Part shown: positions 2,257 through 48,689 of the stretch, one piece after another
Layout of the letters: the number at the start of each line of letters is the position of its first letter
How positions within the stretch are numbered: position 1 is the first letter of the stretch
NCBI GenBank assembly: GCA_963846335.1
Contig: CAWJVS010000020.1
Span: forward strand, 30,238-94,237
Length of the DNA stretch: 64,000 nt
Direction: 5' to 3'
Origin: an uncultured Bacteroidales bacterium
GTDB lineage: Bacteria > Bacteroidota > Bacteroidia > Bacteroidales > VadinHA17
Made by a program: the position numbers and the translations under genes
The notes under the pieces: model-generated
Database searches by the model: none
What the model saw: the letters and a program-made list of their open reading frames with translations, nothing else
Told to the model about the DNA's origin: nothing

Positions 2257-2922
2257 TCAATGCCAGTCAATATTAGCTAAACCTTTATCAGTCAGATATT
2301 CATTGCATCTGCTGAAGTGCCTGTTCCCAAAGAATCCTCTCGGGGCGGAGAGGGGAGAGGGGTGAACTGACTCAAGCACCATGTGCTTCGATCTGTCAAT
2401 ACTTTCCCCTTTTTTCTGAGCATACGCTCCCCAAAGAAAAAAGACAGTATTGTGCTTTTCGGTATTGATTATGCGTATAACGGCATCAGTAAATTCTTCC
2501 CATCCTTTTCTTTGATGCGATCCTGCCTGATGAGCCCTGACAGTAAGTGTAGCATTCAGGAGCAGCACACCCTGCCTGGCCCAACGTTCCAGATTTCCTG
2601 AAACAGGCTTCTTATATCCGAGATCCAGTTCAATCTCCTTGAAAATATTTATCAGGCTAGGAGGAAAACCCACACCATCCCTCACTGAAAAGCATAATCC
2701 ATGAGCCTGACCCGGACCATGATATGGATCTTGTCCGATTAGGACAGCCTTTATATTTTCAAAAGGACAAAGATTGAAAGCATTGAAAATCAGCGATGCC
2801 GGGGGATAGATAGTATTTACTCTGTATTCCTCCCTTACAAATTCAGCCAGTCGGATGAAGTAATCCTTGTTGAACTCCTCCTTCAATTTTGATTTCCAGG
2901 TTTCATCAATCTTTACATCCAT
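2257..2922 (-). CDS. ung: Uracil-DNA glycosylase (family 1)
   Basis: 221 aa. Contains GQDPYHGPGQAHGLCFSV and the C-terminal HPSPLS motif, which are diagnostic for UNG. Confidence 0.95.
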   Translation of the reverse strand: MDVKIDETWKSKLKEEFNKDYFIRLAEFVREEYRVNTIYPPASLIFNAFNLCPFENIKAVLIGQDPYHGPGQAHGLCFSVRDGVGFPPSLINIFKEIELDLGYKKPVSGNLERWARQGVLLLNATLTVRAHQAGSHQRKGWEEFTDAVIRIINTEKHNTVFFLWGAYAQKKGESIDRSKHMVLESVHPSPLSAPRGFFGNRHFSRCNEYLTDKGLANIDWH

Positions 2923-3001
2923 ATAAAAGGTATTATGGTTCTGGAGTATTTCCGTGACGCTAAAGTAATAAAATTGTATTATTATTAACTTTACAATAAA
3001 A

Positions 3002-3451
3002 ATGGCAACCGAGACAGAACGTAAGTTCCTTGTTAAAGGAGAATTCAGGCACCTGGCCGTCCGGCAGATTATAATAAATCAAGCCTACCTCTTAAAAGAT
3101 CCCTATAAAACCATAAGACTCAGGATCACAGAAGATAAGGCTTATCTGACTATAAAGACCCCTCTGACTCAGGAAACAATTGCCAGGAACGAATGGGAAT
3201 ATCAGATCCCGCTTGATGATGCTGACGAGATAATGAAAATATGCCTTCCTGGTAAAGTTTATAAAACAAGATATATTGTTCCGTCAGGCAGACATACCTT
3301 TGAGGTTGATGTATTTCACGATAAAAATGAGGGTCTGGTAATTGCAGAGCTGGAGCTCGGTTCTGAGGACGAACAGTTTGATATTCCTGACTGGCTTGGC
3401 TCAGAAGTTACCGGCAACCCGGCCTATTATAATTCAAACCTCGCAAAATAG
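3002..3451 (+). CDS. CYTH-domain protein (triphosphate tunnel metalloenzyme)
   Basis: 149 aa. N-terminal ETERKFLV (ExExK signature) and later EVDVF/ELE acidic strands, typical of the CYTH/CyaB-ThTPase fold. Confidence 0.8.
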   Translation: MATETERKFLVKGEFRHLAVRQIIINQAYLLKDPYKTIRLRITEDKAYLTIKTPLTQETIARNEWEYQIPLDDADEIMKICLPGKVYKTRYIVPSGRHTFEVDVFHDKNEGLVIAELELGSEDEQFDIPDWLGSEVTGNPAYYNSNLAK

Positions 3452-3483
3452 ATTTACTTTTGTATTAAATCCTTTTATGCCAG

Positions 3484-4446
3484 TTAGTTTAAATCACTGA
3501 TTATCCTTTCCAGAACATCCGTAAAAGCATAACCGGCCTGTCTGGTAGCTGCTACAAACCCTCCGTCGGGGGAGATGCATGGATTTGCATTGATTTCAAT
3601 GACGAAGATATTGCCATTGCTGTCCGCCCTGACATCTACCCGGGCATAGCCTTTTAGTCCGAACAGGTGCCAGCACTCTCTGGCAGTTTCCCTGAGCCTT
3701 CTGACAAATCCGGGGTCAAGACTTGATCCCGGAAATTCCCTCACGGTATTTTCGAACTCGAAGGTGTCCATTTCCCATTTTGCCTTGAAATCAACTATTC
3801 TGGGCCTGGAGTCATCAAAATCCCTGAAAACAATTTCTGCCGGCGGAAGTACTTCCGGTCCCTCTTTCCCTGCCAGCACGCTCATATTATATTCACGGCC
3901 ATCAATAAAATCTTCAATAAACCAGTGCTTATCATCCTTCCCTTTAAGTTTTTCCTCGAAACCCTCTGTGCAGTCAAAGACTGAATCGGCAGTTATGCCG
4001 AGAGATCCATCTTCCCAGATTGGCTTAACGATATATCTGTGACCCGGTTTCAGCAGGCTTATATCTGATGGTTTATATGCTGCCGGATTATTAATCCCGG
4101 CTTCTTTCATCATCCTGCTCGCAATAGTTTTATTTGTTGTAAGAAAAATAGCTTCAAGTGAATTTCCTGAATATGGGATGCCATACATATTAAGAAGAGC
4201 AGGAATAAAATAATTAAGCTCTCCCTTATTTTTGATTGATTCAACGAGATTGAAAACAAAATCAGGTTTTTCTTCCGCAAGGACTGAGATTTCTTTCATG
4301 AAGTTTTCAGTGATGCCCTTCCGGGAGACATTTATTCCCATTTCGATAAGATACTTCTCGATATGGGAAACCTGGTCAAGTACGTCGAGTTCATCCTCCA
4401 GAGCTCCGGGGAGTGGCTCATTATAAATAATACAGCATTTTTTCAT
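3484..4446 (-). CDS. ATP-grasp ligase, D-alanine--D-alanine-ligase-like
   Basis: 320 aa with a Ddl-like layout. N-terminal Rossmann-like half, then KP..EDGS.GI, ARVDVR and FVIEINANPCI (ATP-grasp Mg/ATP loop). Overlaps the upstream gene by 4 nt (4443-4446). Confidence 0.75.
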   Translation of the reverse strand: MKKCCIIYNEPLPGALEDELDVLDQVSHIEKYLIEMGINVSRKGITENFMKEISVLAEEKPDFVFNLVESIKNKGELNYFIPALLNMYGIPYSGNSLEAIFLTTNKTIASRMMKEAGINNPAAYKPSDISLLKPGHRYIVKPIWEDGSLGITADSVFDCTEGFEEKLKGKDDKHWFIEDFIDGREYNMSVLAGKEGPEVLPPAEIVFRDFDDSRPRIVDFKAKWEMDTFEFENTVREFPGSSLDPGFVRRLRETARECWHLFGLKGYARVDVRADSNGNIFVIEINANPCISPDGGFVAATRQAGYAFTDVLERIISDLN

Positions 4447-5423
4447 AACTGTCGCACACCGTTTATCCTCCTGGTTGCCGCATCCATAATCATTTCCATA
4501 AGTTTCTGGTATTCAATTCCGTACATTCTGGCCAGGATTGGAAGATCAGAGTGGACAGGGTTTAGTCCGGCCAGCGGATTTGCCTCGATAAAGCATATTC
4601 TTCCATGGCGGTCTGCCTTAAGATCAATTCTTCCGGCATCCACAGCTTCAAGGGCTTTCCAGGCTCTGAGCGCCACCATTTTGCATTCATCGGCAATACC
4701 GGCATCAAGAGGAGTATATTTGCAATAATTCTGATAATTTTCCTTTACTTCGACAGAGTAGGGCAGGTTATCCGCACAAATCACCTCCATACCTCCTATG
4801 GCTATTGCATCGTCACCGGTGCCTACTATACCGACAGTGAATTCCCTTCCGGGCAGATACTCTTCAACAAGGGCAGGCTGCCTGAATTCCTGCAAAATCC
4901 ATTCTACCATCACTCTGAGCTCAGCTGCACTCTTCACCAGGCTCTTTTCTGTTATCCCCTTGCCTGTTCCTTCAGATACAGGTTTTACGAAAAGAGGGTA
5001 GGTTAAACCGGTTTTGTCTGATTCATCAGGTTTTGTAACCAGAAGTCCCGGGCTTACAGGAACTCCTGCAGCAGAAACAACTAGCTTTGCAAGGTGTTTG
5101 TTGAGGGAAATTCCCATAATGACAGGGCCACTGAATACGTAAGGAATTTTATACTGATCAAGAATGGCAGGAACAACTGATTCTCTTCCGTCCCCGTATA
5201 AACCCTCAGCAATATTGAAAACAATATCCCATCTTTTACCTGCAGCAAGAGCCTCAATCAGCTGGAAAGCATTCCCTATGGGGTCAGTCTCATGGCCCAT
5301 CTCCTTAAGTGAATTTTCCAGGGCATCAACTGTTTCCTGCTTGTCAAATTCGGCAGTTTCATCCAAAGAATACCCCCGGTCAGTATACCATGACCGCAGA
5401 TCAAATGTCAATCCAACTTTCAT
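4443..5423 (-). CDS. ATP-grasp ligase, D-alanine--D-alanine-ligase-like (paralog of 3484..4446)
   Basis: 326 aa. Motifs YPLFVKPVSEGTGKGI, VEEYLPGREFTVGIVG and GRIDLKADRHGRICFIEANPLAGL. Lies 9 nt downstream of the KamA-like gene. Confidence 0.75.
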   Translation of the reverse strand: MKVGLTFDLRSWYTDRGYSLDETAEFDKQETVDALENSLKEMGHETDPIGNAFQLIEALAAGKRWDIVFNIAEGLYGDGRESVVPAILDQYKIPYVFSGPVIMGISLNKHLAKLVVSAAGVPVSPGLLVTKPDESDKTGLTYPLFVKPVSEGTGKGITEKSLVKSAAELRVMVEWILQEFRQPALVEEYLPGREFTVGIVGTGDDAIAIGGMEVICADNLPYSVEVKENYQNYCKYTPLDAGIADECKMVALRAWKALEAVDAGRIDLKADRHGRICFIEANPLAGLNPVHSDLPILARMYGIEYQKLMEMIMDAATRRINGVRQL

Positions 5424-5432
5424 TTATCAGCC

Positions 5433-6278
5433 TTATTTTTCAGGATATTCGCACAACACACCCTTATAGTTTCTCATCACAATCCGTTCCTCGTTATGCT
5501 CTACCACATAATCAGGCAGCAAAGGAATTTTCCCTCCTCCGCCGGGAGCATCAACAACAAAAGTAGGCACAGCATATCCGCTTGTGAAGCCTCTGAGCCC
5601 CCTGATAATCTCAAGACCTTTCCTGACAGTCGTCCTGAAATGGGATGATCCTGGTATTAAGTCACACTGATACAGGTAATAAGGCCTGACTCTTATCTTC
5701 AGTAACCTGTGCATAAGTTCCTTCATTACAGGTACATTATCATTGATGCCCTTAAGCAGGACTGTTTGACTTCCAAGAGGAAACCCGCCATCAGCAAGCT
5801 TGATGCATGCCTTCGCACATTCATCAGTAATTTCTGAAGGATGAGAGAAGTGCAGACTGATGAAAACAGGGTGATATTTCCTGAGAACGCTAATAAGATT
5901 ATCGGTGATTCTCTGTGGCAGAACAACTGGGATTCTGGTCCCTATCCTTATTATCTCAACATGCGGAATGCTCCTTATATTGGACAGTATGTAGTCGAGC
6001 GTATCGTCTGTCAGTGTCAGAGGATCACCACCGCTTATCAGCACATCTCTGACTTCCTTATGTGCTGCAATATAGCTGAATGCTTTTTCAAAATCCTGTC
6101 TTCCGAGCTTATCAAGCCTGCCGACTGAATGAGAGCGGGTACAATACCGGCAATAATTTGAACAGACCTGTGTTACCGTGAACAAAACTCTGTCAGGATA
6201 CCTGTGTACAATACCTTTTACAGGAGAAAATGATTTCTCATGAAGAGGATCAGACTGCTCTGTAGTATGCTGCAACAA
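5433..6278 (-). CDS. Lysine 2,3-aminomutase-like radical SAM enzyme, C-terminal 281-aa fragment (frame-disrupted gene)
   Basis: HRYPDRVLFTVTQVCSNYCRYCTRS holds the CxxxCxxC radical-SAM motif in KamA context. GGDPL and a C-terminal VVDAPGGGGK are also present. The reading frame continues upstream of the Met as RRNVIPVVEELLQH. Confidence 0.85.
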   Translation of the reverse strand: MLQHTTEQSDPLHEKSFSPVKGIVHRYPDRVLFTVTQVCSNYCRYCTRSHSVGRLDKLGRQDFEKAFSYIAAHKEVRDVLISGGDPLTLTDDTLDYILSNIRSIPHVEIIRIGTRIPVVLPQRITDNLISVLRKYHPVFISLHFSHPSEITDECAKACIKLADGGFPLGSQTVLLKGINDNVPVMKELMHRLLKIRVRPYYLYQCDLIPGSSHFRTTVRKGLEIIRGLRGFTSGYAVPTFVVDAPGGGGKIPLLPDYVVEHNEERIVMRNYKGVLCEYPEK

Positions 6279-6300
6279 CTCTTCAACAACCGGAATGACA

Positions 6301-6675
6301 TTACGCCTGCAGCGGATCTGAATATTTGGACCTGTAAATCAGTGAGGCAAAATAGGGAGTTATCCGAAGCGGAAGACGGCCTTTTAGATTATTAATAGCC
6401 ATTATCTCCTTATCGGATAATTTCATGATTTTCTTTAGATCTTCGATGCTTGTGAAAGCATTCCGAAGCTGCCATTTCCAATCATTCCAGGATTCGATAG
6501 TTGTTAGGGGGAAGTAGCGGTGCATGAACTCCGAACTTCGGTTGCTAACTAACTGATTTGGGATTTCGTTTTGCGAAAAAATCGTGGTTTTCGCGCCAGG
6601 CTCTTCATCAGAAGAGCAACCCACGAGGCGACTCTCTCCATGGAGTGTCGTAGCCTCATTATTGTTAGCGTTCAT
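6301..6675 (-). CDS. Lysine 2,3-aminomutase-like enzyme, N-terminal 124-aa fragment
   Basis: WNDWKWQLRNAF and LRITPYFASLI match the KamA N-terminus. The fragment ends ...SDPLQA*, whereas the +1 frame reads RRNVIP, joining the 5433..6278 fragment. This implies one extra nucleotide near 6290-6300. Confidence 0.8.
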   Translation of the reverse strand: MNANNNEATTLHGESRLVGCSSDEEPGAKTTIFSQNEIPNQLVSNRSSEFMHRYFPLTTIESWNDWKWQLRNAFTSIEDLKKIMKLSDKEIMAINNLKGRLPLRITPYFASLIYRSKYSDPLQA

Positions 6676-7158
6676 AGCAGATGATGAGAATTTTCACCTT
6701 TTCGATTTAATTGTTTTTTAAATTAATACTTGGTTTCCATAAAATATTTCGACGAAAATAAATAATCTATAAATACATTGTATCATTCGACCATCAATAA
6801 TATTAACACAATCTGCATTTTATTAACAGTCATTTTATTAGTCTTAAAAATACAGTATCGTATATCATTGATAACATGTGTCTTGCGAAAACATTCCAGT
6901 ACAAAACAAAGTAAATGTTGAATGGTATTTTTTTGACATCTTACTTTCGAACGGCATTTTTATTTTAAAATTGCAATACTCATTAATATATTTAATTTTT
7001 TAAATTCAATTAGTGCATTTCTCAAAAACAGTGCCAGAATTAATTGGCAGATTAATCAGCCTGAGTCTGGCAATTTTGAGATATTTTTATACACTGAATG
7101 AAAAAACACAGATTTAAACAAAATGATTATTCATTTTGTTCAGTATTGAGTTTATAAT

Positions 7159-8583
7159 ATGGATATTCCCAACCTTGTCAACAATAAAAAAAGTTATATA
7201 AAGTCCCTTTTCAGGGATATCGCTGAAGCCGTATCCGGAACGGAACAGGATTTTACGGAGGGACGCATGAGCCGGGCAATCCTTCTTCTTTCCATACCTG
7301 CAGTGCTTGAGATGATAATGGAATCGGTCTTTGTAATTGTGGATATTGCTTTTGTTTCCAGGTTGGGAGCAGATGCTGTTGCAACTGTTGGGATCACAGA
7401 ATCAATGGTGACAATTATTTACGCCATAGCTATCGGTCTGGGAACGGCAACAACCTCATTGGTTTCCCGGCGTATCGGAGAAAAAAATAATGAAGAAGCC
7501 TCCAGGTCAGCCTTTCAGGCTATCCTGACCGGTATTGTAGTCTCACTTATAATTGGTATTCCCGGTGCGTTGTTTGCAAAACGACTGCTCGGGCTTATGG
7601 GCGCCTCAGAGAATATTACCGCTAATATGGCCGGTTATGCAAGGATAATGCTGGGTGGAAATATAGTAATTATGATGCTGTTCATTATCAATGCCATTTT
7701 CAGAAGCGCAGGAGACGCGGCTGTTGCCATGAAAGTGCTGTGGATTGGAAACATCCTCAACATAATTCTTGATCCCTGTCTTATTTTTGGCCTTGGCCCT
7801 TTTCCGCAGTTGGGCGTTACAGGAGCTGCCGTCGCTACTACAATCGGAAGAGGAACTGCCGTCCTCGTGCAGTTTTATCTCCTGTTCTTCGGCAGGAAGC
7901 GCATTCGTCTGTCAATAAAGCATCTTAAGATTGATTTCAGCATTATGCTGAAGCTGCTGAGACTCTCTGTTGGCAGTATCGGGCAAAACCTTATAAGCAC
8001 AACCAGCTGGATAGCACTTGTCAGGATCATTTCAGTTTTCGGAAGCGAAGTAGTGGCCGGCTATACAATAGCAATCCGTATAATCGGGTTTACTTTGCTT
8101 CCTTCGTGGGGTATAAGCAATGCAGCGTCCACACTTGTAGGTCAAAACCTGGGCGCAAAGAAACCCGACAGGGCAGAAAAGGCAGTTTGGGTTACAGGAT
8201 GGGTAAATATGATCCTGCTTGGGATTATCGGTCTGATACTCGCTCTCTTTCCTGATTATTTTATCCGGCTGTTCATTTCAAATGAAAATGTTATAAGATC
8301 AGGAATTCTGGGACTCAGGATAATAAGCTTAGGATTCATTGCCTATGGACTTGGAATGGTACTTGTCAACTCTTTCAACGGAGCAGGTGATACAACGACA
8401 CCTCTAAAAATCAATATATTTGCTTTCTGGATGGTTGAAATACCTCTGGCTTATTTCCTTGCCCTTAAGCTCGGACTGAATGAAACAGGTGTATTTGTAG
8501 CAATTGTCCTGGCAGAAACCCTGATGACATTAACAGCCTGGCTCGTATTCCGGAGGGGAAAATGGAAGCTCAAGGTAGTATAA
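7159..8583 (+). CDS. MATE family efflux transporter
   Basis: 474 aa with about 12 hydrophobic segments. N-terminal LSIPAVLEMIMESVFVIVDIAFVSRLG and a mid-protein repeat of the same pattern, typical of MATE/NorM. Confidence 0.85.
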   Translation: MDIPNLVNNKKSYIKSLFRDIAEAVSGTEQDFTEGRMSRAILLLSIPAVLEMIMESVFVIVDIAFVSRLGADAVATVGITESMVTIIYAIAIGLGTATTSLVSRRIGEKNNEEASRSAFQAILTGIVVSLIIGIPGALFAKRLLGLMGASENITANMAGYARIMLGGNIVIMMLFIINAIFRSAGDAAVAMKVLWIGNILNIILDPCLIFGLGPFPQLGVTGAAVATTIGRGTAVLVQFYLLFFGRKRIRLSIKHLKIDFSIMLKLLRLSVGSIGQNLISTTSWIALVRIISVFGSEVVAGYTIAIRIIGFTLLPSWGISNAASTLVGQNLGAKKPDRAEKAVWVTGWVNMILLGIIGLILALFPDYFIRLFISNENVIRSGILGLRIISLGFIAYGLGMVLVNSFNGAGDTTTPLKINIFAFWMVEIPLAYFLALKLGLNETGVFVAIVLAETLMTLTAWLVFRRGKWKLKVV

Positions 8584-8641
8584 TTACTCTCCGGACACTC
8601 CAAACTTTACTTCACAAATTAGTTATTTAGCTTTAACCATG

Positions 8642-11236
8642 TCATGGCACCATAACTTTTTCCACAGCAAAAAGCTCTCCTTTTGAAACAACTATCAGAT
8701 AAAGTCCCGGAGCTACGTGGGATATGTCGAAGATAATGGTGTCTGAATCAACGATCTTTCGCATGATATGTGTTCCCTGCAGATTATAAAGGTCAACAAA
8801 ACATGAGACAAAATCCTCAAAAAAGGTGATTCTGATTTCATCTGTACTTACAATGATTGAATAGGGATTCTGACTGGTATGGTTAATGTCAATATCCATT
8901 GTTCCATATACCCCGGAACCGTCATTTGCAGTAGCCTGTGCCGTGGCAGTGCCATTTTCAATAGCAGTTACAAGTCCCGAAGAATTTATGCTGGCCCGTT
9001 CCGTTCCATGTACCATCGACCAGGTTACATCTTTATATGTTGCATTTGAGGGCAATACTGAGGCATTTAGCTGAAGTGATCCCTTATGCTCTGATATAGT
9101 GTTGATTCCATTTTCTCCTGATACGGTGATATTTGTCACGGCTATTACCTGTCCGGAAATTGTTATATCCAGTGTTCCGTATATACCTGATCCATCCACC
9201 GCTGTTGCCCTTGCGGTGACAATGCCATTTGCGAGAGCTGTCACAAGGCCTGTAGAATTGATAAAAGCTTCACCCGTTCCGTTGGTTATTGACCAGTTGA
9301 GGTTTTTATCGGAGGCATATTCAGGAAGGATTGCAGCACTCAGCTGCAATGAGCCATCCTTTGTTGTAATTATTGTGACGCCGGCGGGGCCTGTTACAGT
9401 TATACTGGATATAAGTGTTGCCTGGTTTGAAATTGTAATGTCCAGGGTTCCCCTGGCTCCTGAACCGTCATTTGCTGTCGCAACGGCCGTGACAACACCA
9501 TTGGCAATGGCGGTTACAAGACCTGCGGAACTGATGGTTGCCTGTCCGGAAGAATTGATAAGTGACCATTTTACTGTTTTGTCGGTTGCATTCAGCGGAA
9601 GTATAGACTCCATGAGTTGCAGAGTTCCTTTATCAGAAGAAATTGTTGTTCTGCCGCCTGCACCAGTCACAGCAATACTTGTCACGGGTATCATAAGACT
9701 GGCGATCGTAATTGTCATCAGTCCATAAACACCGGATCCGTCGCTGGCCGTTGCACGGGCTGTCACAATACCATTTGATGATGCAGTCACGAGTCCTGAG
9801 GAACTTATACTTGCCTGTCCTGTTCCATTTGCAATAGTCCAGATTACATTTTTATTCGTCGCATTTGCAGGTAAAACTGCTGCATTCAATTGTAATGTTC
9901 CATTCTCACTTGTGATTATCGATGCGCCTCCGGCTCCGGATACGCTGATACTGGTTACAGGAATAACCTGACCGGAGATTGTTATCAGCATTGTACCGGC
10001 TATTGCCGATCCGTCTGTGGCAGTCGCCCTGGCAGTCACGGTCCCGTTGGCTGCAGCGGTTACAAGACCGGAAGAATTAATTGTGGCCTGTCCGGTACCA
10101 TTTATTATTGACCAGGTGATAACCTTATTTGAAGCGTTTGAAGGCAATACTTCGGCGCTCAGCTGTAATGTGCCATTATCAGTGTTTATGGTACTGGCAC
10201 CTCCGGCACCCATTACATTTATATCAGACACATAAACTGTCTGCGGCGCGTAAATACGCGCACCTACCTGCCATGTGCCGTTCTGAGCAGTAGTTGAGGG
10301 AGATGACCCCGGAACCCACGTTGCAGAAGTGGATAGTCCTGTCTGCCATTCAGTTCCAAGATTCGTTCCAAAATCCAATCTTGCTGCCGGAACAAAGTCA
10401 ATTGTATTTATGAAATTCGGATTCATTATTCGTGAATGCGCATCATAGCCGCGTGCCCTCCATTGTGCCCAGGAAACGGTTGTTCCATCAATATTGAATT
10501 TGGGCTCACCAACTGTACACCAGTATATATTATAGTCACACTCAAAATTTTTCAGGCTGCCTGATTCAATTCTGATCATAGGTATCTGGGTGGTTGAATA
10601 GAATATATTATTAAATACTTTTGTACCGACTGATGGCGCCGGGACGAGCCTGTCCATGTTCTCAGTTATAAGCAGAAGGTACCATCCGCTGCCATCTCCG
10701 CTGTAAAAAGTATTATTATAGAATTTCACTCCATTAATTCCCTTAACCCTGCCGCTGAATTTTCCATTCCTGCATATATTATAAGCACAGCCTCCTGAAG
10801 TAAAGGTCATATTATAACCCAGATCTGTGCCTGACTTGAATATTATTCCATATGGCACTTTGTCGAGATAATTATATTTTACAACGGAGTTAATATTATA
10901 GCCGACAAAAAGTCCGTGAGTGATCACTGAAGGACTGTTAGTGCCATTCCATACAAATTTGTTCCCGATTATTACCTCGCCGTCCAGCTTATTGTTTGTT
11001 GATCCTGGTGATTCATCGCCTGCCTGAAGCAGATATCCGTAAGTATTTATGGAAGTGATCGAGTTATTTCTGTATGTAAATTGAGTTTGTACATCGCGTG
11101 GTATATTCACCCCGGACCAATTTCCTGATAATGTGTTATTTACTCTTGTCCCCTCAATTGTCAGAACTGTCTGGCCAAATGATAAAAATGAATTAATTAA
11201 AAGAAAAAATATTGCTGTATTCCTCTTCATCTGCAC
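8642..11236 (-). CDS. Secreted surface protein: right-handed beta-helix-like N-domain, five Big_2-type Ig repeats, T9SS C-terminal sorting domain
   Basis: 864 aa with a signal peptide. The N-terminal 330 aa are rich in N/G-x-I/F turns (NNIFYS, YNNTFYS). Five ~90-aa repeats carry GTLQL.A.VLP.NATNK.V.WS...G.A.I...GLVTA..NG.VT..A.A.DGSG. The tail LYNLQGTHI...GLYLIVVSKGE...KVMV resembles a Por/T9SS CTD. Confidence 0.8.
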   Translation of the reverse strand: MQMKRNTAIFFLLINSFLSFGQTVLTIEGTRVNNTLSGNWSGVNIPRDVQTQFTYRNNSITSINTYGYLLQAGDESPGSTNNKLDGEVIIGNKFVWNGTNSPSVITHGLFVGYNINSVVKYNYLDKVPYGIIFKSGTDLGYNMTFTSGGCAYNICRNGKFSGRVKGINGVKFYNNTFYSGDGSGWYLLLITENMDRLVPAPSVGTKVFNNIFYSTTQIPMIRIESGSLKNFECDYNIYWCTVGEPKFNIDGTTVSWAQWRARGYDAHSRIMNPNFINTIDFVPAARLDFGTNLGTEWQTGLSTSATWVPGSSPSTTAQNGTWQVGARIYAPQTVYVSDINVMGAGGASTINTDNGTLQLSAEVLPSNASNKVITWSIINGTGQATINSSGLVTAAANGTVTARATATDGSAIAGTMLITISGQVIPVTSISVSGAGGASIITSENGTLQLNAAVLPANATNKNVIWTIANGTGQASISSSGLVTASSNGIVTARATASDGSGVYGLMTITIASLMIPVTSIAVTGAGGRTTISSDKGTLQLMESILPLNATDKTVKWSLINSSGQATISSAGLVTAIANGVVTAVATANDGSGARGTLDITISNQATLISSITVTGPAGVTIITTKDGSLQLSAAILPEYASDKNLNWSITNGTGEAFINSTGLVTALANGIVTARATAVDGSGIYGTLDITISGQVIAVTNITVSGENGINTISEHKGSLQLNASVLPSNATYKDVTWSMVHGTERASINSSGLVTAIENGTATAQATANDGSGVYGTMDIDINHTSQNPYSIIVSTDEIRITFFEDFVSCFVDLYNLQGTHIMRKIVDSDTIIFDISHVAPGLYLIVVSKGELFAVEKVMVP
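8880..10240. repeat. Five tandem ~270-bp coding repeats (Big_2 units) inside 8642..11236
   Basis: Periodicity is visible in the protein and in the mirrored antisense ORFs (8886, 9099, 10017). Confidence 0.85.
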
Positions 11237-11381
11237 ATACCTGTTTGTTTAAAATACACCAATAATTTAAGCTATTTACTGAATGAGTGAGATGGACCGT
11301 AATGTTTCTTTATGCAAAAATAAAAAAATTACATATTAATCAATTTAATGTGATTACAGATTAAGATATTTTTGACAGAAT

Positions 11382-11810
11382 TCAACCTTCATCCATATTG
11401 TCAGATTTCTTTCTCAGAGTTTTTTTATAGCCATGGCTCCGTTTCTCATCAATTCGTTTTTGCACTGAAGCCTTGGTTGGAAGGGTTGATCGTCGTTTTG
11501 GTGCTGATGTCAGGGCCTTTGAGACTATTGTAAAAAATTTTTCGGTGACCAGTTTTTTATTCATCAGCTGAGTCCGTTCAGACTGTGCAGTAAGTATTAT
11601 TTCCCCTTCACCGCTGATTTTGTTCGGCAACTTCCTGCAGATCATCTTTTTCTCATCATCCGAGAGTAGCATGGTATTGTTAATGTTGAACCGCAATTCA
11701 ACCTTGGTGTTAAGCTTATTGATATTCTGTCCCCCGGGTCCGCTGCTCCTGGATGCCGAATAAACGAATTCATTTTCAAGATTCCTTTTTTTAAGCTCTT
11801 CCGGTTTCAT
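11382..11810 (-). CDS. arfB: Alternative ribosome-rescue factor ArfB (peptidyl-tRNA hydrolase, GGQ domain)
   Basis: 142 aa. SGPGGQNINK GGQ motif plus a basic C-terminal tail (KRRSTLPTKASVQKRIDEKR). Confidence 0.9.
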   Translation of the reverse strand: MKPEELKKRNLENEFVYSASRSSGPGGQNINKLNTKVELRFNINNTMLLSDDEKKMICRKLPNKISGEGEIILTAQSERTQLMNKKLVTEKFFTIVSKALTSAPKRRSTLPTKASVQKRIDEKRSHGYKKTLRKKSDNMDEG

Positions 11811-11827
11811 TCAGAGTATAATTTTAT

Positions 11828-12793
11828 TTACATGAAAAAGAGCGCCACTCCGCCGACACTTACAAGGGCACCAACCAGTTCAGGAAGAGTAACCTTTTCC
11901 TTGTATACAATAACAGCAGGCAGGATTATAAAAACAGGCACCAGCGACATAATAGTCGAAGCTATACCTGCTTCCGTGTACCTGACTGCAATCAGTGAAA
12001 ATGATACTCCAAGAAATGGGCCAAAAAATGCACCAAGTGTAGTCAGAGCCATTCCCTCTTTATTATGGATCGCCCTGGATACATTTCCCCACCGGAAAAG
12101 AATGGTTACCAGGGCAGCATATCCGATAATACCGGCAATTATCCTTATTTGGGTTGCAGCAAAAGCATCATAATCTTTTAATCCAAATTTGCTTAAAACC
12201 AGACCAAGTGCCTGACCAACAGCTCCGCCAATTGCATACAAAATACCTTTTGGGGCCAGCTTCAGGGAAAATTTTTCACCCTTGCCCTTCCTGCCGAATA
12301 TTGCCATGGAGATTCCTGCAAAGGTCAGGGTCATTCCCAGACCATGAAACAGTGTAAGCCGCTCGCCTATGATAACAAAACTGAAAAATGCGGTCATGGG
12401 AGGTACAAGGGTCATTATAAGCATCGAGAACCTTGATCCGATAATCGTATATGATTTAAAAAGAAAAAGATCTCCGAAAACAAATCCGACCAGTCCGGAG
12501 AGGGTGAGCCAAATCCAGTTGTCGACAGAGGCATCTGTGGGCAGAATCAATCCTCTTCTTATAAATGTATATACACTGAGGAATATGAGACCAATAACCA
12601 GCCTTAGTATATTTACTGCGATAGAACCTATTTTATGGCTGGCAGACTCAAATGACAATGAAGTGACAGTCCAGAAAATGGCTGTCAGCAATGCAGCGAA
12701 TTCGCCGGTATGATTGTTTATAATATTCAATGTCAGGCTACTGGAATTATTCTTCCGGATATTCGAATGAGTAACTGCCAGACCCGGTTTCAA
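11828..12793 (-). CDS. EamA/DMT family transporter
   Basis: 321 aa with 10 hydrophobic segments in two EamA-like halves. The ATG at 12793 overlaps the GH78 3' end by 47 nt. An in-frame TTG at 12730 is an alternative start. Confidence 0.75.
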   Translation of the reverse strand: MKPGLAVTHSNIRKNNSSSLTLNIINNHTGEFAALLTAIFWTVTSLSFESASHKIGSIAVNILRLVIGLIFLSVYTFIRRGLILPTDASVDNWIWLTLSGLVGFVFGDLFLFKSYTIIGSRFSMLIMTLVPPMTAFFSFVIIGERLTLFHGLGMTLTFAGISMAIFGRKGKGEKFSLKLAPKGILYAIGGAVGQALGLVLSKFGLKDYDAFAATQIRIIAGIIGYAALVTILFRWGNVSRAIHNKEGMALTTLGAFFGPFLGVSFSLIAVRYTEAGIASTIMSLVPVFIILPAVIVYKEKVTLPELVGALVSVGGVALFFM

Positions 12794-14423
12794 TCAGTAT
12801 TTTACCATTCTCTGCCTTTACCGAAGAGAAAGTTTTAATGTCAGCCAGGCTTTTTCCCTCTGAAATAACTTTGGCAGTCGATTCAACCGGCAGCAAAATC
12901 GTTGCAGTTGAATTGGCCGGTATCTTTACATTGACAATAATCTTATTCTCTTTTCTCTCCCAGCCAGATGCGACAGTTCCGAAGGGACTTTCAAAAGTGG
13001 CTTTTGAATATGAAAGCTTTTCTGTAGGATGTGGCTGAATGACAAGATGTTTATATCCCGGATCCCTGGTTTCAAGACCTGCTGAAACCCTGTACATCCA
13101 GTCACCAATGGCTCCATATGCATAGTGATTGAAGGAATTCATCCCGGGGTCCTGAAATGTGCTGTCGGTTTTCTGTCCGTCCCATCTTTCCCAGATGGTT
13201 GTTGCTCCCATCTTTACGGGATAGAGCCATGATGGATATGTCTCCTGCAGAAGGAGATCATATGCAACATCCGTATAGCCGTATGCTGACAGGACATGAC
13301 AAAGGTAGGGCGTTCCAAGAAAGCCGGTCGAAAGATGAATATCCCTGCTTTTGATATCTTCCACCAGAAAACCGGCAGATTTTTCACGCAGGTGCTCAGG
13401 CAGCAGGTCAAACATAAGTGCCAGCACATATGATGTCTGTGAATTGGTTCCTACTCTTCCTGCACTGGTAACATATTCATTGGTAAATACTTCCTTTATC
13501 TTTTTATAAACAGCATCGTAGTGCCATTCGTCCTCAGTATTTCCGAGCTCCCTGGCTGCAGCAACCAGTATGCTTGTTGAGTAGGCATAAAAGGCTGTGG
13601 CAATGAAGTCATGTTCAGTAAAGCCATCAGGTTCGGGATGGTTATTTACAGGAGGATGGTAAAAAAGCCAGTCGCCATATTTACTCCCGCCATTCCATAT
13701 ATAATCGTAACCTGCCTCCTTCTTAATATAGTCGACCCAGGCTTTCATGCTGGAATACTGAGTCCTGAGAATTCTCTTGTCACCATATACAAGATACATT
13801 GTCCATGGAGCAATAACTGCAACATCTCCCCAGCCTGCTGATGGTTTTATTGTTTCACTTCCCTGCGGATTGAGGACATCGGGGATAACATCAGGGACTT
13901 CTCCGCCTGCTCTCTGGTCAGCCTGTACATCCTTCAACCATTTTGTAAAGAAAGCAGATACATCAAGATTGAAAGCAGCTGTCCTGCAAAATGCCTGTGC
14001 ATCACCTGTCCAGCCAAGACGTTCATCGCGCTGCGGACAGTCGGTTGGTACATCAACAAAATTACCTTTCTGACCCCATTGGATATTATGCTGCAGCTGG
14101 TTAAGGAGCGGGTTTGAACACTCGAAGCTTCCGGTTACCTGCATGTCGGAATGTACTACTATTCCTGTCAGATTATCTGTCGTGAGTTCACCTGGGAAAC
14201 CGGTGACTTCGACGTACCTGAATCCCATGAAGGTAAACCTCGGTTCATATGTCTCTTCTCCGGTGCCGGCAAGTTTGTAATCAAGTTCACATTTTGCAGA
14301 GCGAAGATTCGTTGTGTAAAACTCTCCAAACTTATCCATCACCTCGGCATGCCTTAATGTTACAACTGTCCCTTTCGTTCCTGAAACCTTAAGCCTCAGC
14401 CAACCCACCATATTCTGCCCCAT
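12747..14423 (-). CDS. Alpha-L-rhamnosidase (GH78), C-terminal catalytic fragment (frame-disrupted gene)
   Basis: DVPTDCPQRDERLGWTGDAQ and the (alpha/alpha)6 region, with TIWERW, are typical of GH78. The frame stays open upstream of the Met to about 14545 (NAIIGNYSNSNLIASEGAPVRKIQEIKPVKIF...). Confidence 0.85.
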   Translation of the reverse strand: MGQNMVGWLRLKVSGTKGTVVTLRHAEVMDKFGEFYTTNLRSAKCELDYKLAGTGEETYEPRFTFMGFRYVEVTGFPGELTTDNLTGIVVHSDMQVTGSFECSNPLLNQLQHNIQWGQKGNFVDVPTDCPQRDERLGWTGDAQAFCRTAAFNLDVSAFFTKWLKDVQADQRAGGEVPDVIPDVLNPQGSETIKPSAGWGDVAVIAPWTMYLVYGDKRILRTQYSSMKAWVDYIKKEAGYDYIWNGGSKYGDWLFYHPPVNNHPEPDGFTEHDFIATAFYAYSTSILVAAARELGNTEDEWHYDAVYKKIKEVFTNEYVTSAGRVGTNSQTSYVLALMFDLLPEHLREKSAGFLVEDIKSRDIHLSTGFLGTPYLCHVLSAYGYTDVAYDLLLQETYPSWLYPVKMGATTIWERWDGQKTDSTFQDPGMNSFNHYAYGAIGDWMYRVSAGLETRDPGYKHLVIQPHPTEKLSYSKATFESPFGTVASGWERKENKIIVNVKIPANSTATILLPVESTAKVISEGKSLADIKTFSSVKAENGKILIETGSGSYSFEYPEE

Positions 14424-14547
14424 ATCGACAATCAGATTACCTTTTGGTGTCCTGAATATTTTAACTGGCTTTATCTCCTGTATTTTTCTGACAGGAGCAC
14501 CTTCGGAAGCTATGAGGTTACTGTTACTGTAATTCCCAATAATTGCA

Positions 14548-15507
14548 TTATATCCAGCTCTTATCGTTGTAGCCGCTCAAATCCCATCCCTGCAGTTGTC
14601 TGGTGGCATCATAGATTTCACCATTATAAATATCATTCATCCTGATAGCTCCGTCATTTGTAGTTTTCCAGCTATCATCGCTGGCTATCAGCATTTCGGA
14701 ACCATCAGTGAATACAATATTCATCTGCATAAAAAGTCCGAGACTCTTACCGTAATTAGCCCACCCTCTTGGCAGTGTTCCTCTGTACCAGCCATCTCCC
14801 AGAATAGCGCCGATTGCATTTCCCCCGGCCTGAAGCATGTCTGTAACATCGTAAACCTGATACTGAAGTCTTTTTGCATAGGCTGTCCATCCCGGAGTAA
14901 GTACCTGGTCACCCACTTTTTTCCCATTCAGATGCAATTCGTAAAAACCATGTGCTGTTACGTAGACTCTTGCCCTGGCGATCTTTTTTTCAAGCCTGAA
15001 TTCCTTCCTGAAATAAGGAGAGGGGGAGTAACGCTGAGTATCTCCTGCCATCTCAATCCATTTTGCCTTCCAGTCGGACTGTGAAAGGAGTCCCATTTCC
15101 CAGAAAGAAGCTTCACTCCATTTTGATACTTTTCCTTTATTATCCCAGATCTTTACCTGCCAGAAATACCTCCGGCCTGATTGCAGGGCAGGCCCTTTGT
15201 ATTCCTGCAATACTGATTCACCTGATTCCACTTTTCCTGACTGCCAAATAATATCTGAGGCGGAGAATTTCAGGCTGGTGCCAACCCTTATAGAGTACGC
15301 ACTCTGCATAATATTGACACCTGTTCCGGAAATTTTCCATGAAAACCTCGGCTGAGAGATATCAATGCCAACAGGATTCTTTTTATGTTCCAGGGTCAGA
15401 TCTTTCACGGACAGATCCTGTGCCGACAGGATTCCGGAGAAACAAAGCAAAGCAATTATTAGTCTGAGCGATTTCATAGTTTGAATGGTTTTAGAAATAA
15501 TTGTCAA
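14548..15507 (-). CDS. Alpha-L-rhamnosidase (GH78), N-terminal fragment with signal peptide
   Basis: PRFSWK, RRYFWQVKIWD and ARVYVTAHGFYELHLNGKKVGD match the GH78 N-terminal domains. It ends ...YNDKSWI* and the +1 frame continues into 12747..14423, implying a 1-nt indel near 14545-14560. Confidence 0.85.
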   Translation of the reverse strand: MTIISKTIQTMKSLRLIIALLCFSGILSAQDLSVKDLTLEHKKNPVGIDISQPRFSWKISGTGVNIMQSAYSIRVGTSLKFSASDIIWQSGKVESGESVLQEYKGPALQSGRRYFWQVKIWDNKGKVSKWSEASFWEMGLLSQSDWKAKWIEMAGDTQRYSPSPYFRKEFRLEKKIARARVYVTAHGFYELHLNGKKVGDQVLTPGWTAYAKRLQYQVYDVTDMLQAGGNAIGAILGDGWYRGTLPRGWANYGKSLGLFMQMNIVFTDGSEMLIASDDSWKTTNDGAIRMNDIYNGEIYDATRQLQGWDLSGYNDKSWI

Positions 15508-30143: not shown

Positions 30144-31043
30144 TTATTTATTCATGGTCTCATTATATACAATTGCCAGACCTTCAGACATTACCGCCAG
30201 GGACAATTCTCTCAAAACATTTTCTTTACCCCTTTGCCCAAGGCTGGCTCTCAGGGTATTATCTTCAAATAATCTTACAAGCGCTGCTGATAATTCTTCT
30301 GTGGTATCAGGAGAATAGGTTATTCCTCCCCCGGTTTTTTCAATTATTTCAGGAAATGCACCGGTCTCAGGCTGAACAACAGGAACCCCTGAAGCATTTG
30401 CTTCAAGGATATACAGGCCATATCCGTCATGCTTCCTTACGGGGACGCTCATTATGTCTATACTGCTGAAAAACTCCTCTTTGCTGTTTCCCTGAAATTC
30501 AGGATAGATTCTGATGGAGCTTTTCAAGCCATGGTATTTTATCTTCCTTATCTGCTCTGCAATGAAGGATTTATCACTACCGGTAAAGCCGCCCGACACA
30601 TGAAGTGTGAGCTCAGGCAGCTTATTCCTTGTTTTAAGGTCAATAAAGGCATCAACCAGTTTGTCAAAGCCATTCGGAGAATTTATCCTGCTGAAATATC
30701 CAACAGCAGGATAATTATTTTTCTTTGGCAGCACATTTAAATTCCTGGTGTCTATTGCCAGAGGTATTATGTGTACATTTTTACCCGAAAAACCTGTTTT
30801 TGAGATAAACAATTCTTTATAGTAGTTACTCGGCGTAATAAAAGTATCAACATTGACAGCCTCTTCCGAAATCAGTTTCCATGCATCCGAACGATATGGT
30901 TCAGCCATCTCATCAATCCAGTCATCCTCATTTAACAGGGAGCAGACAATCTTTACGTCGAGGTATTTCTTAAGCTGTCGTGCCAGACCGATTATAAGTG
31001 CATTTGAGAGATGAATTATATCCGGTTTCCCATTCTCAGTCAA
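30144..31043 (-). CDS. Glycosyltransferase family 4 (GT-B), C-terminal fragment
   Basis: PDIIHLSN, GYFSRI...KG, and E..G...LEA.A.G.PVV (the EX7E region) are typical of GT4. Confidence 0.75.
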   Translation of the reverse strand: MTENGKPDIIHLSNALIIGLARQLKKYLDVKIVCSLLNEDDWIDEMAEPYRSDAWKLISEEAVNVDTFITPSNYYKELFISKTGFSGKNVHIIPLAIDTRNLNVLPKKNNYPAVGYFSRINSPNGFDKLVDAFIDLKTRNKLPELTLHVSGGFTGSDKSFIAEQIRKIKYHGLKSSIRIYPEFQGNSKEEFFSSIDIMSVPVRKHDGYGLYILEANASGVPVVQPETGAFPEIIEKTGGGITYSPDTTEELSAALVRLFEDNTLRASLGQRGKENVLRELSLAVMSEGLAIVYNETMNK

Positions 31044-31440
31044 GATATTTAACCAGTCTTTTAAGTTCTTTGTCAGGAAATGCTTTTTCCCCCTTTATCA
31101 TACTGAGTGTCATATCCTCAAGCCCTTCAGTGTTTGTTGTGCCAGACCTGCGCGCCGCCATTTTAAGCATTGGTCCGGAATCCAGAACTTTGTCCAGTAT
31201 TGCAGGCATATTTTTCAGAAAAGGGACCTTTTCCCTGAGATACATTGATATGGCGCCGAAGAACACATTCTTGTCGAAGCCGCTCTCAGTATTTGTGTCA
31301 TCCGGGGGAAGATACAAAGGAATGGCAGAAGCTGTAATTCCCGGCACATTCCTTATTGCCCGCAGGTATATCATATCGCGGTAACAGTTTCCGCAATAAA
31401 ATGATCCGCCCGAACCTGTTATAAGATAAATAATCTTCAT
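31036..31440 (-). CDS. Glycosyltransferase family 4, N-terminal fragment
   Basis: MKIIYLITGSGGSFYCGNCYRD is the N-terminal GT-B half. It ends KYLD*, 8 nt inside the next ORF. The single GT-B fold is split, which implies a 1-nt indel near 31040. Confidence 0.65.
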   Translation of the reverse strand: MKIIYLITGSGGSFYCGNCYRDMIYLRAIRNVPGITASAIPLYLPPDDTNTESGFDKNVFFGAISMYLREKVPFLKNMPAILDKVLDSGPMLKMAARRSGTTNTEGLEDMTLSMIKGEKAFPDKELKRLVKYLD

Positions 31441-47148: not shown

Positions 47149-48671
47149 ATGAAAAACAGTTTTTTATATGTTCTGTTTGCAGTATTTGAATTGGTCACAT
47201 GTGCTTCCTGCCGGAAAAATGAACCCTTGCCAAATATTGTTATTATTTATGCTGATGATCTTGGATATGGCGATGTGAGCTGTTATGGCGCTACCCGGAT
47301 AAGTACTCCGAATATTGACAGGCTTGCTGCCGGAGGATTGCGTTTCACCAATGCACACAGCACCTCATCAACCTGTACTCCTTCACGATATTCTTTGCTG
47401 ACAGGTGAATATGCCTGGCGCAGAAGCGGCACAGGCATACTGACAGGCGATGCACCGGCAATTATCAGTCCCGGACGAACAACAATCGCAACAATTCTGA
47501 AGAATGCCGGATATAAAACCGGAGTTGTCGGAAAATGGCATCTTGGCCTGGGTCCTCCCGGCGGGGCAGACTGGAATGGAGATATACCTCCGGACCAATG
47601 GATATCGGATTTGATTATAATTTCATAATTCCTGCAACAGGCGACAGGGTACCATGTGTTTATGTTGAAAACAGGAAAGTTGTTAACCTCGATCCCTCTG
47701 ATCCTATTAAAGTCAGTTTCAGTGAACCAATCTATTCTGAACCAACCGGAAAGGATCATCCTGAACTTCTGAAAATGCATCCCAGTCATGGCCATGATAT
47801 GACAATTGTAAACGGGATAAGCCGAATCGGCTATATGAGCGGCGGAAAATCTGCCCTATGGATCGATGAGGATATTGCCGATATCATAACCGGAAAAGCT
47901 GTAAGATTCATTAAGAAAAACAGGAATAAACCATTTTTTCTCTATTTTTCCACTCATGATATTCATGTCCCCAGGGTACCTGCAAACAGATTTGCCGGAA
48001 AAAGCGGAATGGGACCAAGGGGTGATGTCATACTGGAATTCGACTGGTGCGTGGGTGAGATTATGAAAACAATCGATAGCCTTGAATCTGTCGGAAAATA
48101 CAATAATAATTGTGACAAGCGATAATGGACCAGTTGTTGATGATGGCTATCAGGATCAGGCAGTTGCCAGGCTGAACGGGCACACTCCTGCAGGACCACT
48201 GAGAGGAGGAAAATACAGTCCTTTTGAAGGAGGAACAAGGGTAGTATTTATTGCAAGATGGAATGGGAAAATCGTCCCGGAGTTTCCGATGCTCTTTTCA
48301 GCCAGATTGATCTGATGTCCTCGTTTGCATCGCTGACAGGAGAAACACTCTCCCCGGAAGAAGGACCCGACAGCTTTAATCATATAGATGCCCTGCTTGG
48401 AAAAACAGGAAAAGGACGGGAATGGCTGGTTGAGCATTCCGGCAGGCTGTCAGTTATAAAAGACGACTGGAAATATATTGAACCAGGATCCGGTCCTAAA
48501 ATTCAGGTCAACACTAATTCTGAAACAGGCAATGATCCTGATCCGCAGCTTTACAATATAAACATTGATATTGGTGAAAAACACAATGTTGCAGAACATA
48601 ATCCCGAACTTGTTAAGGAATTGACCGAACTTCTAAAGAAAATTAAGGATGAGGGCAAATCGAGGTTTTGA
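47149..48671 (+). pseudogene. Arylsulfatase (Cys-type, CTPSR), split into 4 ORF fragments by 3 frameshifts
   Basis: The fragments 47149..47628, 47535..48125, 48082..48315 and 48258..48671 read through as one sulfatase. Motifs: IYADDLGYGD, STCTPSRYSLLTG, GKWHLG, TSDNGP, GGKYSPFEGG. Confidence 0.85.
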
Positions 48672-48689
48672 ACAAATAATCAGAAAGAA

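Follow-up and report, generated by a model that had tools for sequence, protein, structure and literature searches.

A conserved cassette of a KamA-family aminomutase and two Ddl-like ATP-grasp ligases as a candidate route to beta-lysine amides

A three-gene locus and its conservation

We analysed a 64,000-nucleotide (nt) stretch of DNA from an uncultured Bacteroidales bacterium of the VadinHA17 lineage (contig CAWJVS010000020.1, positions 30,238 to 94,237; hereafter the window), focusing on three genes on its minus strand between positions 3484 and 6675. The first (5433-6675, minus strand) encodes a KamA-family radical S-adenosylmethionine (SAM)/pyridoxal phosphate (PLP) lysine 2,3-aminomutase-like protein. 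Its frame is split into an N-terminal open reading frame (ORF) of 124 amino acids (aa) that carries WNDWKWQLRN (6675 to 6301, minus strand) and a C-terminal ORF of 281 aa that carries CSNYCRYC and GGDPL (6278 to 5433, minus strand); the intact form has 413 aa. The gene for ATP-grasp ligase A (4443-5423, minus strand; 326 aa) starts 9 nt after the aminomutase stop and is overlapped by 4 nt (ATGA) by the gene for ATP-grasp ligase B (3484-4446, minus strand; 320 aa), beyond which a convergent CYTH gene lies at a distance of 32 nt. Ligase A belongs to the Ddl-like fold family without being a Ddl, and B is a Ddl-like, distant paralogue of A (24% identity, E=1e-17); both carry the Pfam Ddl C-terminal domain (Dala_Dala_lig_C). 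A preliminary description of this locus had reported the three KamA hallmarks, the 9-nt gap and 4-nt overlap, and the paralogy of the ligases. We located all three motifs on the minus strand, and both spacings are exact. The best overall explanation of the data below is that the three genes probably form one operon of a widespread, uncharacterised biosynthetic cassette.

A full HMMER scan over 1.8 billion representatives yielded 565 clusters at E<=1e-30, many of them 640-730-aa proteins with two matched stretches. A scan with one genome per species gave at least 591 relatives, placing the cassette at at least 591 places among species-representative genomes; the best 80 loci were analysed in detail. 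These best 80 come from Bacteroidales/Rikenellaceae, Prolixibacteraceae, Lentimicrobiaceae, Cytophagales and Chitinophaga, and extend to Desulfobacterota and others (Desulfobacterales, Syntrophaceae, Desulfovibrionaceae, Bacteriovoracaceae and one Clostridia metagenome-assembled genome [MAG]). By tblastn, 77 of the 80 informative loci have the aminomutase upstream of A; ligase B is encoded downstream of A in all of 85 loci. The same collinear order of aminomutase, A and B, with short or overlapping junctions, is found in the window. Neighbourhood conservation of the KamA-like gene with two ATP-grasp genes, a check proposed in the preliminary description, is evident from these counts. A plasmid search returned only rhizobial ATP-grasp genes of ~30% identity in an unrelated context.

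The cassette genes are also physically fused in several combinations. Aminomutase-A fusions include P0372 (819 aa, Syntrophobacteraceae DRH4) and one in locus L083. A-B fusions are present in P0121, P0340 and locus L085, with P0121 consisting of an A-like domain (40% identity) joined to a B-like domain (37%) and the L085 fusion adjoining a separate aminomutase and a GNAT acetyltransferase gene. A B-GNAT fusion is present in L081. An apparent aminomutase-A fusion ORF in L065 and L073 was rejected as a frame artefact of ORF calling in GC-rich DNA. The L085 cassette is adjoined by a separate system of RimK-like ATP-grasp, 7TM-transglutaminase, RimB-like, AstE/AspA-like and M14 peptidase genes (L085 11385-17974).

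Outside the clade nearest to the window, most loci, among them those of Desulfobacterota and Clostridia, have a 158-aa GNAT gene immediately after B. It is mostly missing in the window's closest relatives (L001-L018), being present in L011 and partial in L013, and the window clade thus appears to have lost it. The cassette GNAT gave no match to the AblB model and is weakly RimI-like. Sequence matches at E=9e-29 and 4e-27, seen with GNATs that include L052 7945-8418 and L069 8089-8568, place it in one family with the unassigned structure 2R7H, whose name, putative D-alanine N-acetyltransferase, probably derives from mislabelled neighbouring "Ddl" genes. In a dozen loci the cassette is linked to a ~580-aa GNAT-deacetylase (HDAC-domain) fusion, which lies between the aminomutase and A in L052, L054, L055, L056, L061 and L064 and elsewhere in the locus in L043, L045 and L075. 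For the deacetylase domain, acetylpolyamine amidohydrolases are better matches (E=1e-60 to 1e-74) than protein deacetylases, a result that suggests a small N-acetylated alkylamine. Many Bacteroidales cassettes continue with a gene for a 122-aa DMT_6/DUF486 membrane protein. The GNAT, DMT_6 and GNAT-deacetylase genes are all absent from the 64-kb window.

Catalytic residues and reading frames of the cassette enzymes

Model scores for the aminomutase were taken on the frame-corrected protein. The sole model whose cut-off it passed was the KamA family model TIGR00238 (366.6 bits against a cut-off of 199.2). It fell below the cut-offs of the AblA equivalog TIGR03820 (500.3 against 525.4, with the match stopping at profile position 360 of 417), glutamate 2,3-aminomutase TIGR04368 (444.8 against 650), arginine 2,3-aminomutase (402 against 600), AblA-like-2 (323 against 396) and EpmB TIGR03821 (259.1 against 369.3), the last being the lowest of the KamA-type models. 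By model score the enzyme thus appears closest to AblA/KamA.

The aminomutase orthologue of L002 is 53.5% identical to the solved lysine 2,3-aminomutase (LAM) 2A5H over 357 positions (residues 11-367). The CxxxCxxC motif (CSNYCRYC) and the equivalents of R134, D293, D330 and K337 are invariant in 72 of 72 cassette aminomutases. According to published structural work on 2A5H, R134 binds the alpha-carboxylate, and D293 and D330 the epsilon-ammonium, of free lysine. Glutamate 2,3-aminomutase has Lys/Asn in place of D293/D330; the cassette enzymes keep both aspartates, and the glutamate-type pattern was not seen among them. Because R134, D293 and D330 are conserved, the enzyme should act on free L-lysine and yield beta-lysine, a prediction that we consider strong. 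The cassette enzymes lack the C-terminal ~50 residues of KamA/AblA (~57 AblA profile positions) and the zinc ligand C268, where N, D, S, E or Q is found instead, and the Bacteroidales versions alone carry a conserved N-terminal extension of ~55 residues.

The sole sequence matches of A and B in the PDB are Ddl/Van structures. Both ligases score below the cut-off of 243 bits of the Ddl NCBIfam subfamily model (A 133.5 bits, B 100.1 bits), and E. coli DdlB aligns with them only from residue ~62, at 24-29% identity. In an alignment of 84 A and 78 B sequences to DdlB, K97, K144, E187, K215, R255, D257 and N272 (DdlB numbering) are invariant throughout. E180 and E270 are invariant in A; in B, E180Q occurs in 17 of 78 sequences and E270D in 2 of 78. 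Since the ATP, Mg and transition-state residues are conserved, A and B should both be active acyl-phosphate-forming amide ligases.

The residues of the D-Ala site differ from those of Ddl, and differ between the two ligases. Replacements in A are S150T, S151G, Y216E and L282D, with L282D invariant in the 84 sequences and S/D at the S281/L282 positions. In B, Y216W, G276C and L282G are invariant in the 78 sequences; E68L is also found, S150 is replaced by G/A, and S281/L282 read (S/G/A)/G. The two extra carboxylates in A would suit substrates that bring an additional ammonium group; beta-lysine is one example, and other di- or polyamines would also qualify.

The split in the window's aminomutase is due to a single extra base, CT[G]CAGG, at about position 6310 (minus strand), identified by alignment with the intact genes of two related contigs, L001 and L002, which read CT-CAGG. 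The N-terminal frame reads ...SDPLQA and ends at a premature TAA at 6303-6301; the other frame continues ...RRNVIPVVEELL... Dropping the extra base restores ...SDPLRRNVIPV..., the canonical KamA motif. The L001 and L002 aminomutases are intact, with 413 aa, and are 93-97% identical to the repaired window product. Gene calling on the deposited 121-kb contig includes the 124-aa fragment, so the extra base is in the assembly itself.

The ratio of nonsynonymous to synonymous substitution rates (dN/dS) was computed for the window against relatives with 78-80% DNA identity. For the aminomutase the ratio is 0.03-0.04 overall and 0.02 downstream of the break, with no second lesion, and for ligase A it is 0.08; both genes are under strong purifying selection. 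At least four other genes in the 64-kb window are split into adjacent ORFs: a rhamnosidase (14548-15507 and 12747-14423), a sulfatase (52023-52460 and 52478-53290), further sulfatase fragments (47535-49317) and a GT4/GT1 glycosyltransferase (31036-31440 and 30144-31043). Such splits suggest that the assembly contains indel errors or that there are several pseudogenes. Split genes also abound in the sister contig L001, and N-terminal fragments of the aminomutase gene in other assemblies are cut elsewhere, at 138 and 195 aa.

Because dN/dS is low past the break, other genes in the window are split and the truncations in other assemblies differ, the break is most likely an assembly indel and not the mark of a dead gene. 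The alternative is that the base at 6310 is a real, recent mutation, that no beta-lysine is made here and that the ligases are idle or decaying. We consider this unlikely, although the frameshift is present in the deposited assembly, where the 124-aa fragment is called as a gene, the insertion lies outside any homopolymer run, and the window clade is already without the GNAT and often without DMT_6, so that the pathway could be eroding. A dead locus fits poorly with the selection measured downstream of the break, with A and B that are both intact and under purifying selection, and with the abundance of splits elsewhere in the window and in L001, an assembly of the same kind. The preliminary description had placed a possibly fatal frameshift near 6290; the frame break is present, at about 6310, but the dN/dS of 0.02 beyond it argues against a dead gene.

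The upstream spacer and the surrounding genes

The spacer upstream of the aminomutase (6676-7158) is 483 nt long with 28-32% GC, and is the divergent region common to the aminomutase and a MatE gene. In alignments only the ~190 nt nearest the aminomutase are conserved within it, and these are more conserved than coding DNA. It had previously been described as an unusually long AT-rich spacer; its length and composition hold, but it is a divergent promoter region shared with MatE and only ~190 nt of it are conserved. Synonymous divergence from L001 is 0.28 in codons 1-123 of the aminomutase (window 6307-6675) against 0.89 in the rest of the gene, which hints that nucleotide-level constraint extends into the coding start.

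An operator-like direct repeat, TGTTAATA-N12-TGTTAATAT (6800-6828, minus strand), lies ~125 nt upstream of the aminomutase ATG. It has one match in the 64 kb, against 0 expected by shuffling, and each of 23 related Bacteroidales loci has exactly one copy, placed 125-155 nt before the aminomutase ATG. We regard the TGTTAATA repeat as a candidate operator. Nearer the gene, a block that is nearly invariant over ~35 Bacteroidales loci (GATACAATGTATTTATAGATTATTTATTTTCGTC; 6751-6788, minus strand) resembles a promoter and may function as one.

A small hairpin of five pairs, GGTGA-N6-TCATC (6683-6698, minus strand), lies 8-23 nt before the ATG. Over 31 loci 94.6% of its cells are paired, against 24-73% when the partners are slid, and six compensatory cells fall in two of the five pairs; RNAalifold predicted no structure on the leader, this hairpin included. 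With weak to moderate confidence, the hairpin is a candidate translational or leader element. Rfam scans revealed no riboswitch in the whole window (gathering threshold), in the spacer (E<=1) or in 11 distant loci.

Upstream of the Desulfobacterota cassettes lie a sigma-54 activator gene and either one or two short ORFs of 82-97 aa (L069 2701-4568, L077 2692-4559, L083 5314-7781), and the control of these cassettes differs from that of the Bacteroidales versions. The small ORFs were considered as carrier proteins and rejected, as they are not conserved across lineages.

Within ~10 kb of the window's cassette the annotated neighbours encode TPR/SH3, Cys/Met PLP enzyme, UDG, CYTH, MatE, Big_2, RF-1-domain, EamA and rhamnosidase proteins. 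None is a lysine-fermentation, AblB or EF-P gene, in agreement with the preliminary description; epmA was not searched for. The Big_2 gene (8642-11236, minus strand) encodes an 864-aa protein with tandem Big_2 repeats that varies from 816 to 1070 aa across related contigs, and whose relatives match a Por secretion tail domain. In L001 and L002 a molybdopterin oxidoreductase and further genes separate the Cys/Met PLP enzyme from the TPR/SH3 gene (L001 14515-17837); these are absent from the window (site 937).

A possible beta-lysine amide pathway and its alternatives

In the pathway that we propose, the KamA-type radical-SAM/PLP enzyme would turn free L-lysine into beta-lysine, and the dedicated ligases A and B would then each form one amide bond via an acyl-phosphate intermediate, two steps that gene context, the fusions and the intact catalytic residues suggest. 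The product would be a small beta-lysine conjugate; examples are a compound resembling a di- or tripeptide, a short oligomer of beta-lysine, or beta-lysine joined to another amine as an amide. Ligase A most likely would handle beta-lysine itself, because of the aminomutase-A fusions and the acidic residues in its pocket. In most other lineages the dedicated 158-aa GNAT would N-acetylate the product or an intermediate, and in some lineages the acetylpolyamine-amidohydrolase-type deacetylase could remove the acetyl group and DMT_6 would be co-transcribed. As the window clade has apparently lost the GNAT, its product would keep a free amine. We infer that the product most likely serves as a cytoplasmic protectant (a compatible-solute-like or polyamine-like metabolite) or as an exported cationic metabolite. 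Stepwise ligation of beta-lysine, as opposed to fermentation, had been suggested for this locus before, and is now supported by the conserved gene order, the fusions, the lysine-binding residues and the non-Ddl character of the ligases.

Several points weigh against this proposal. Every step after the first is one that we infer. Three of the 80 loci (L051, L078 and L086) have no aminomutase by tblastn; L078 has an aminomutase-like ORF of 152 aa upstream, while L051 and L086 appear to be aminomutase-free, so A and B can use something besides locally made beta-lysine. The N-terminal ~60 residues of A and B align unreliably with Ddl, which makes the assignment of the E15 equivalent uncertain. Carriers are mostly MAGs from freshwater sediment, fen, soil and digesters, with no obvious osmolyte setting. 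The transporters adjacent to the cassette, namely MatE (divergent, in the window), MFS (in L085) and DMT_6 (downstream, elsewhere), fit export as well as a cytoplasmic role. The extra base at 6310 is, as noted, not in a homopolymer, and a genuine recent mutation is its alternative explanation.

The aminomutase-free locus L086 has its own character (2593-15371). It comprises an A-B fusion, a GNAT-deacetylase and a GNAT, with no aminomutase within 8 kb, and is surrounded by ketoacyl synthase, ACP, amine oxidase, aldehyde dehydrogenase, FabA/ApeI-like, SDR and MMPL genes. A lipid-like or polyketide-like amine may be the substrate of this version.

Among the remaining alternatives, the best placed, though improbable, is protein modification, in which the aminomutase would be EpmB-like and A and B would replace EpmA in placing beta-lysine onto EF-P or another protein. 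The cassette aminomutase shares with EpmB the absence of the C-terminal zinc-cysteine region and of the C268 ligand, ATP-grasp enzymes such as RimK modify proteins, and the GNAT is weakly RimI-like. Against this, EpmB gives the lowest score among the KamA-type models (259 bits, with a cut-off of 369), the conserved partner of acetylpolyamine-amidohydrolase type speaks for a small molecule, and the cassette contains no conserved small substrate protein. The efp gene is absent from all 87 loci and the window, the stretches that the search covered, and the EpmB-type aminomutase with an EF-P link that the preliminary description had named as a competing possibility was thus not seen. Moreover, some Bacteroidetes EF-Ps are of the PGKGP subfamily, members of which are hypothesised to work unmodified (bioRxiv 10.1101/2023.09.18.558224). 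The proposed pathway does resemble EpmB/EpmA in that a shortened KamA-family enzyme would feed beta-lysine to an ATP-dependent ligase; the cassette ligases are ATP-grasp enzymes, whereas EpmA is a LysRS paralogue.

Less probable still is that the locus serves lysine fermentation or a plain AblAB-type N-epsilon-acetyl-beta-lysine pathway to which the ligases are incidental. The closeness of the aminomutase to the AblA/KamA clade and the acetyltransferase in most cassettes would suit it. However, kamDE, kdd, kce and kal were not recognised among the Pfam-annotated window neighbours or the annotated recurrent neighbour families (no targeted search was made), the GNAT has only 158 aa, fails the AblB model and is absent from the window, and A and B are kept throughout and occur in fusions with the other cassette enzymes. 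Like AblA/AblB of methanogens and some bacteria, the cassette starts with a KamA-type aminomutase for which AblA is the best-scoring specific model, has a GNAT acetyltransferase in most versions and would use beta-lysine for biosynthesis rather than catabolism. Unlike that pair, it has an aminomutase that does not reach the AblA cut-off and is missing ~57 profile positions at its C-terminus, a GNAT that is not of AblB type, and two obligatory ATP-grasp ligases of which AblAB has none. The likeness to clostridial KamA lies in the 53.5% identity to the Clostridium subterminale enzyme (2A5H) and in the lysine, PLP, SAM and cluster residues, all kept; the cassette differs in lacking recognised fermentation genes among its annotated neighbours, the zinc site (C268 and the C-terminal cysteines) and, in Bacteroidales, in its ~55 extra N-terminal residues.

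It is scarcely credible that A and B are D-Ala-D-Ala (or D-Ala-D-X) ligases of the ordinary cell-wall kind that happen to adjoin an aminomutase: public sources name both D-alanine--D-alanine ligase, Ddl structures are their only PDB sequence matches and all catalytic residues are conserved, but their scores lie far below the subfamily cut-off (133 and 100 against 243 bits), only residues from ~62 align with DdlB, at low identity, S150, Y216 and L282 are replaced in family-invariant ways, no mur or fts gene is among the annotated immediate neighbours (no search aimed at mur/fts was made), and fusions join the ligases to a KamA enzyme and to a GNAT. The bona fide Ddl enzymes raised as a counter-possibility in the preliminary description are accordingly not what we find here. 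What A and B share with Ddl/Van ligases is the fold family, the ATP, Mg and acyl-phosphate catalytic residues and probably the amide-forming chemistry; the N-terminal region, the specificity residues and the non-cell-wall context set them apart.

Two further known pathways offer parallels in logic to the proposed beta-lysine route. In pyrrolysine synthesis, PylB carries out a radical-SAM rearrangement of lysine and the Ddl-like ATP-grasp enzyme PylC then an amide ligation. PylB is not a KamA-family enzyme, PylC was not among the PDB sequence matches of A or B at E<=0.001, and the cassette has no PylD. In the NAGGN osmolyte pathway, Ngg, a GNAT fused to an ATP-grasp ligase, makes an N-acetylated dipeptide solute. 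The B-GNAT fusion of L081 has the same domain logic; Ngg is of another ATP-grasp subfamily and uses other substrates (glutamine), the cassette lacks an AsnO-type amidotransferase, and the NAGGN pathway lacks an aminomutase.

Our full-text literature searches gave no description of the cassette, their matches concerning AblAB, EF-P or fermentation, and NCBIfam has no model dedicated to either ligase, to the GNAT or to the GNAT-deacetylase fusion. The cassette is a new combination of known enzyme kinds. Thousands of public proteins named D-alanine--D-alanine ligase belong to it and are not Ddl by every test applied here. With three kinds of fusion tying it together, it ranks among the better-supported unassigned small pathways; it is well delimited and directly testable, and alone settles no long-standing question. 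Once solved, it would join fermentation, N-epsilon-acetyl-beta-lysine, EF-P modification and antibiotic building blocks as a further, new fate of beta-lysine, would extend the substrates of Ddl-fold ligases by a new class and would give the solved but unassigned GNAT structure 2R7H a function.

The fullest version of our proposal has, in our judgement, about an even chance of being right: that the cassette makes a previously unknown class of beta-lysine amide metabolite, N-acetylated in most lineages, with which anaerobic Bacteroidota, Desulfobacterota and other bacteria of sediments and digesters would have a new protectant, polyamine surrogate or exported cation. The candidate product is a beta-lysyl-beta-lysine-type or beta-lysine-amine conjugate formed by a Ddl-derived "beta-lysine ligase", and in Bacteroidales its synthesis would be under the control of the TGTTAATA-repeat operator. 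Such a metabolite, possibly new, may be relevant to the stress tolerance of sediment and digester anaerobes.

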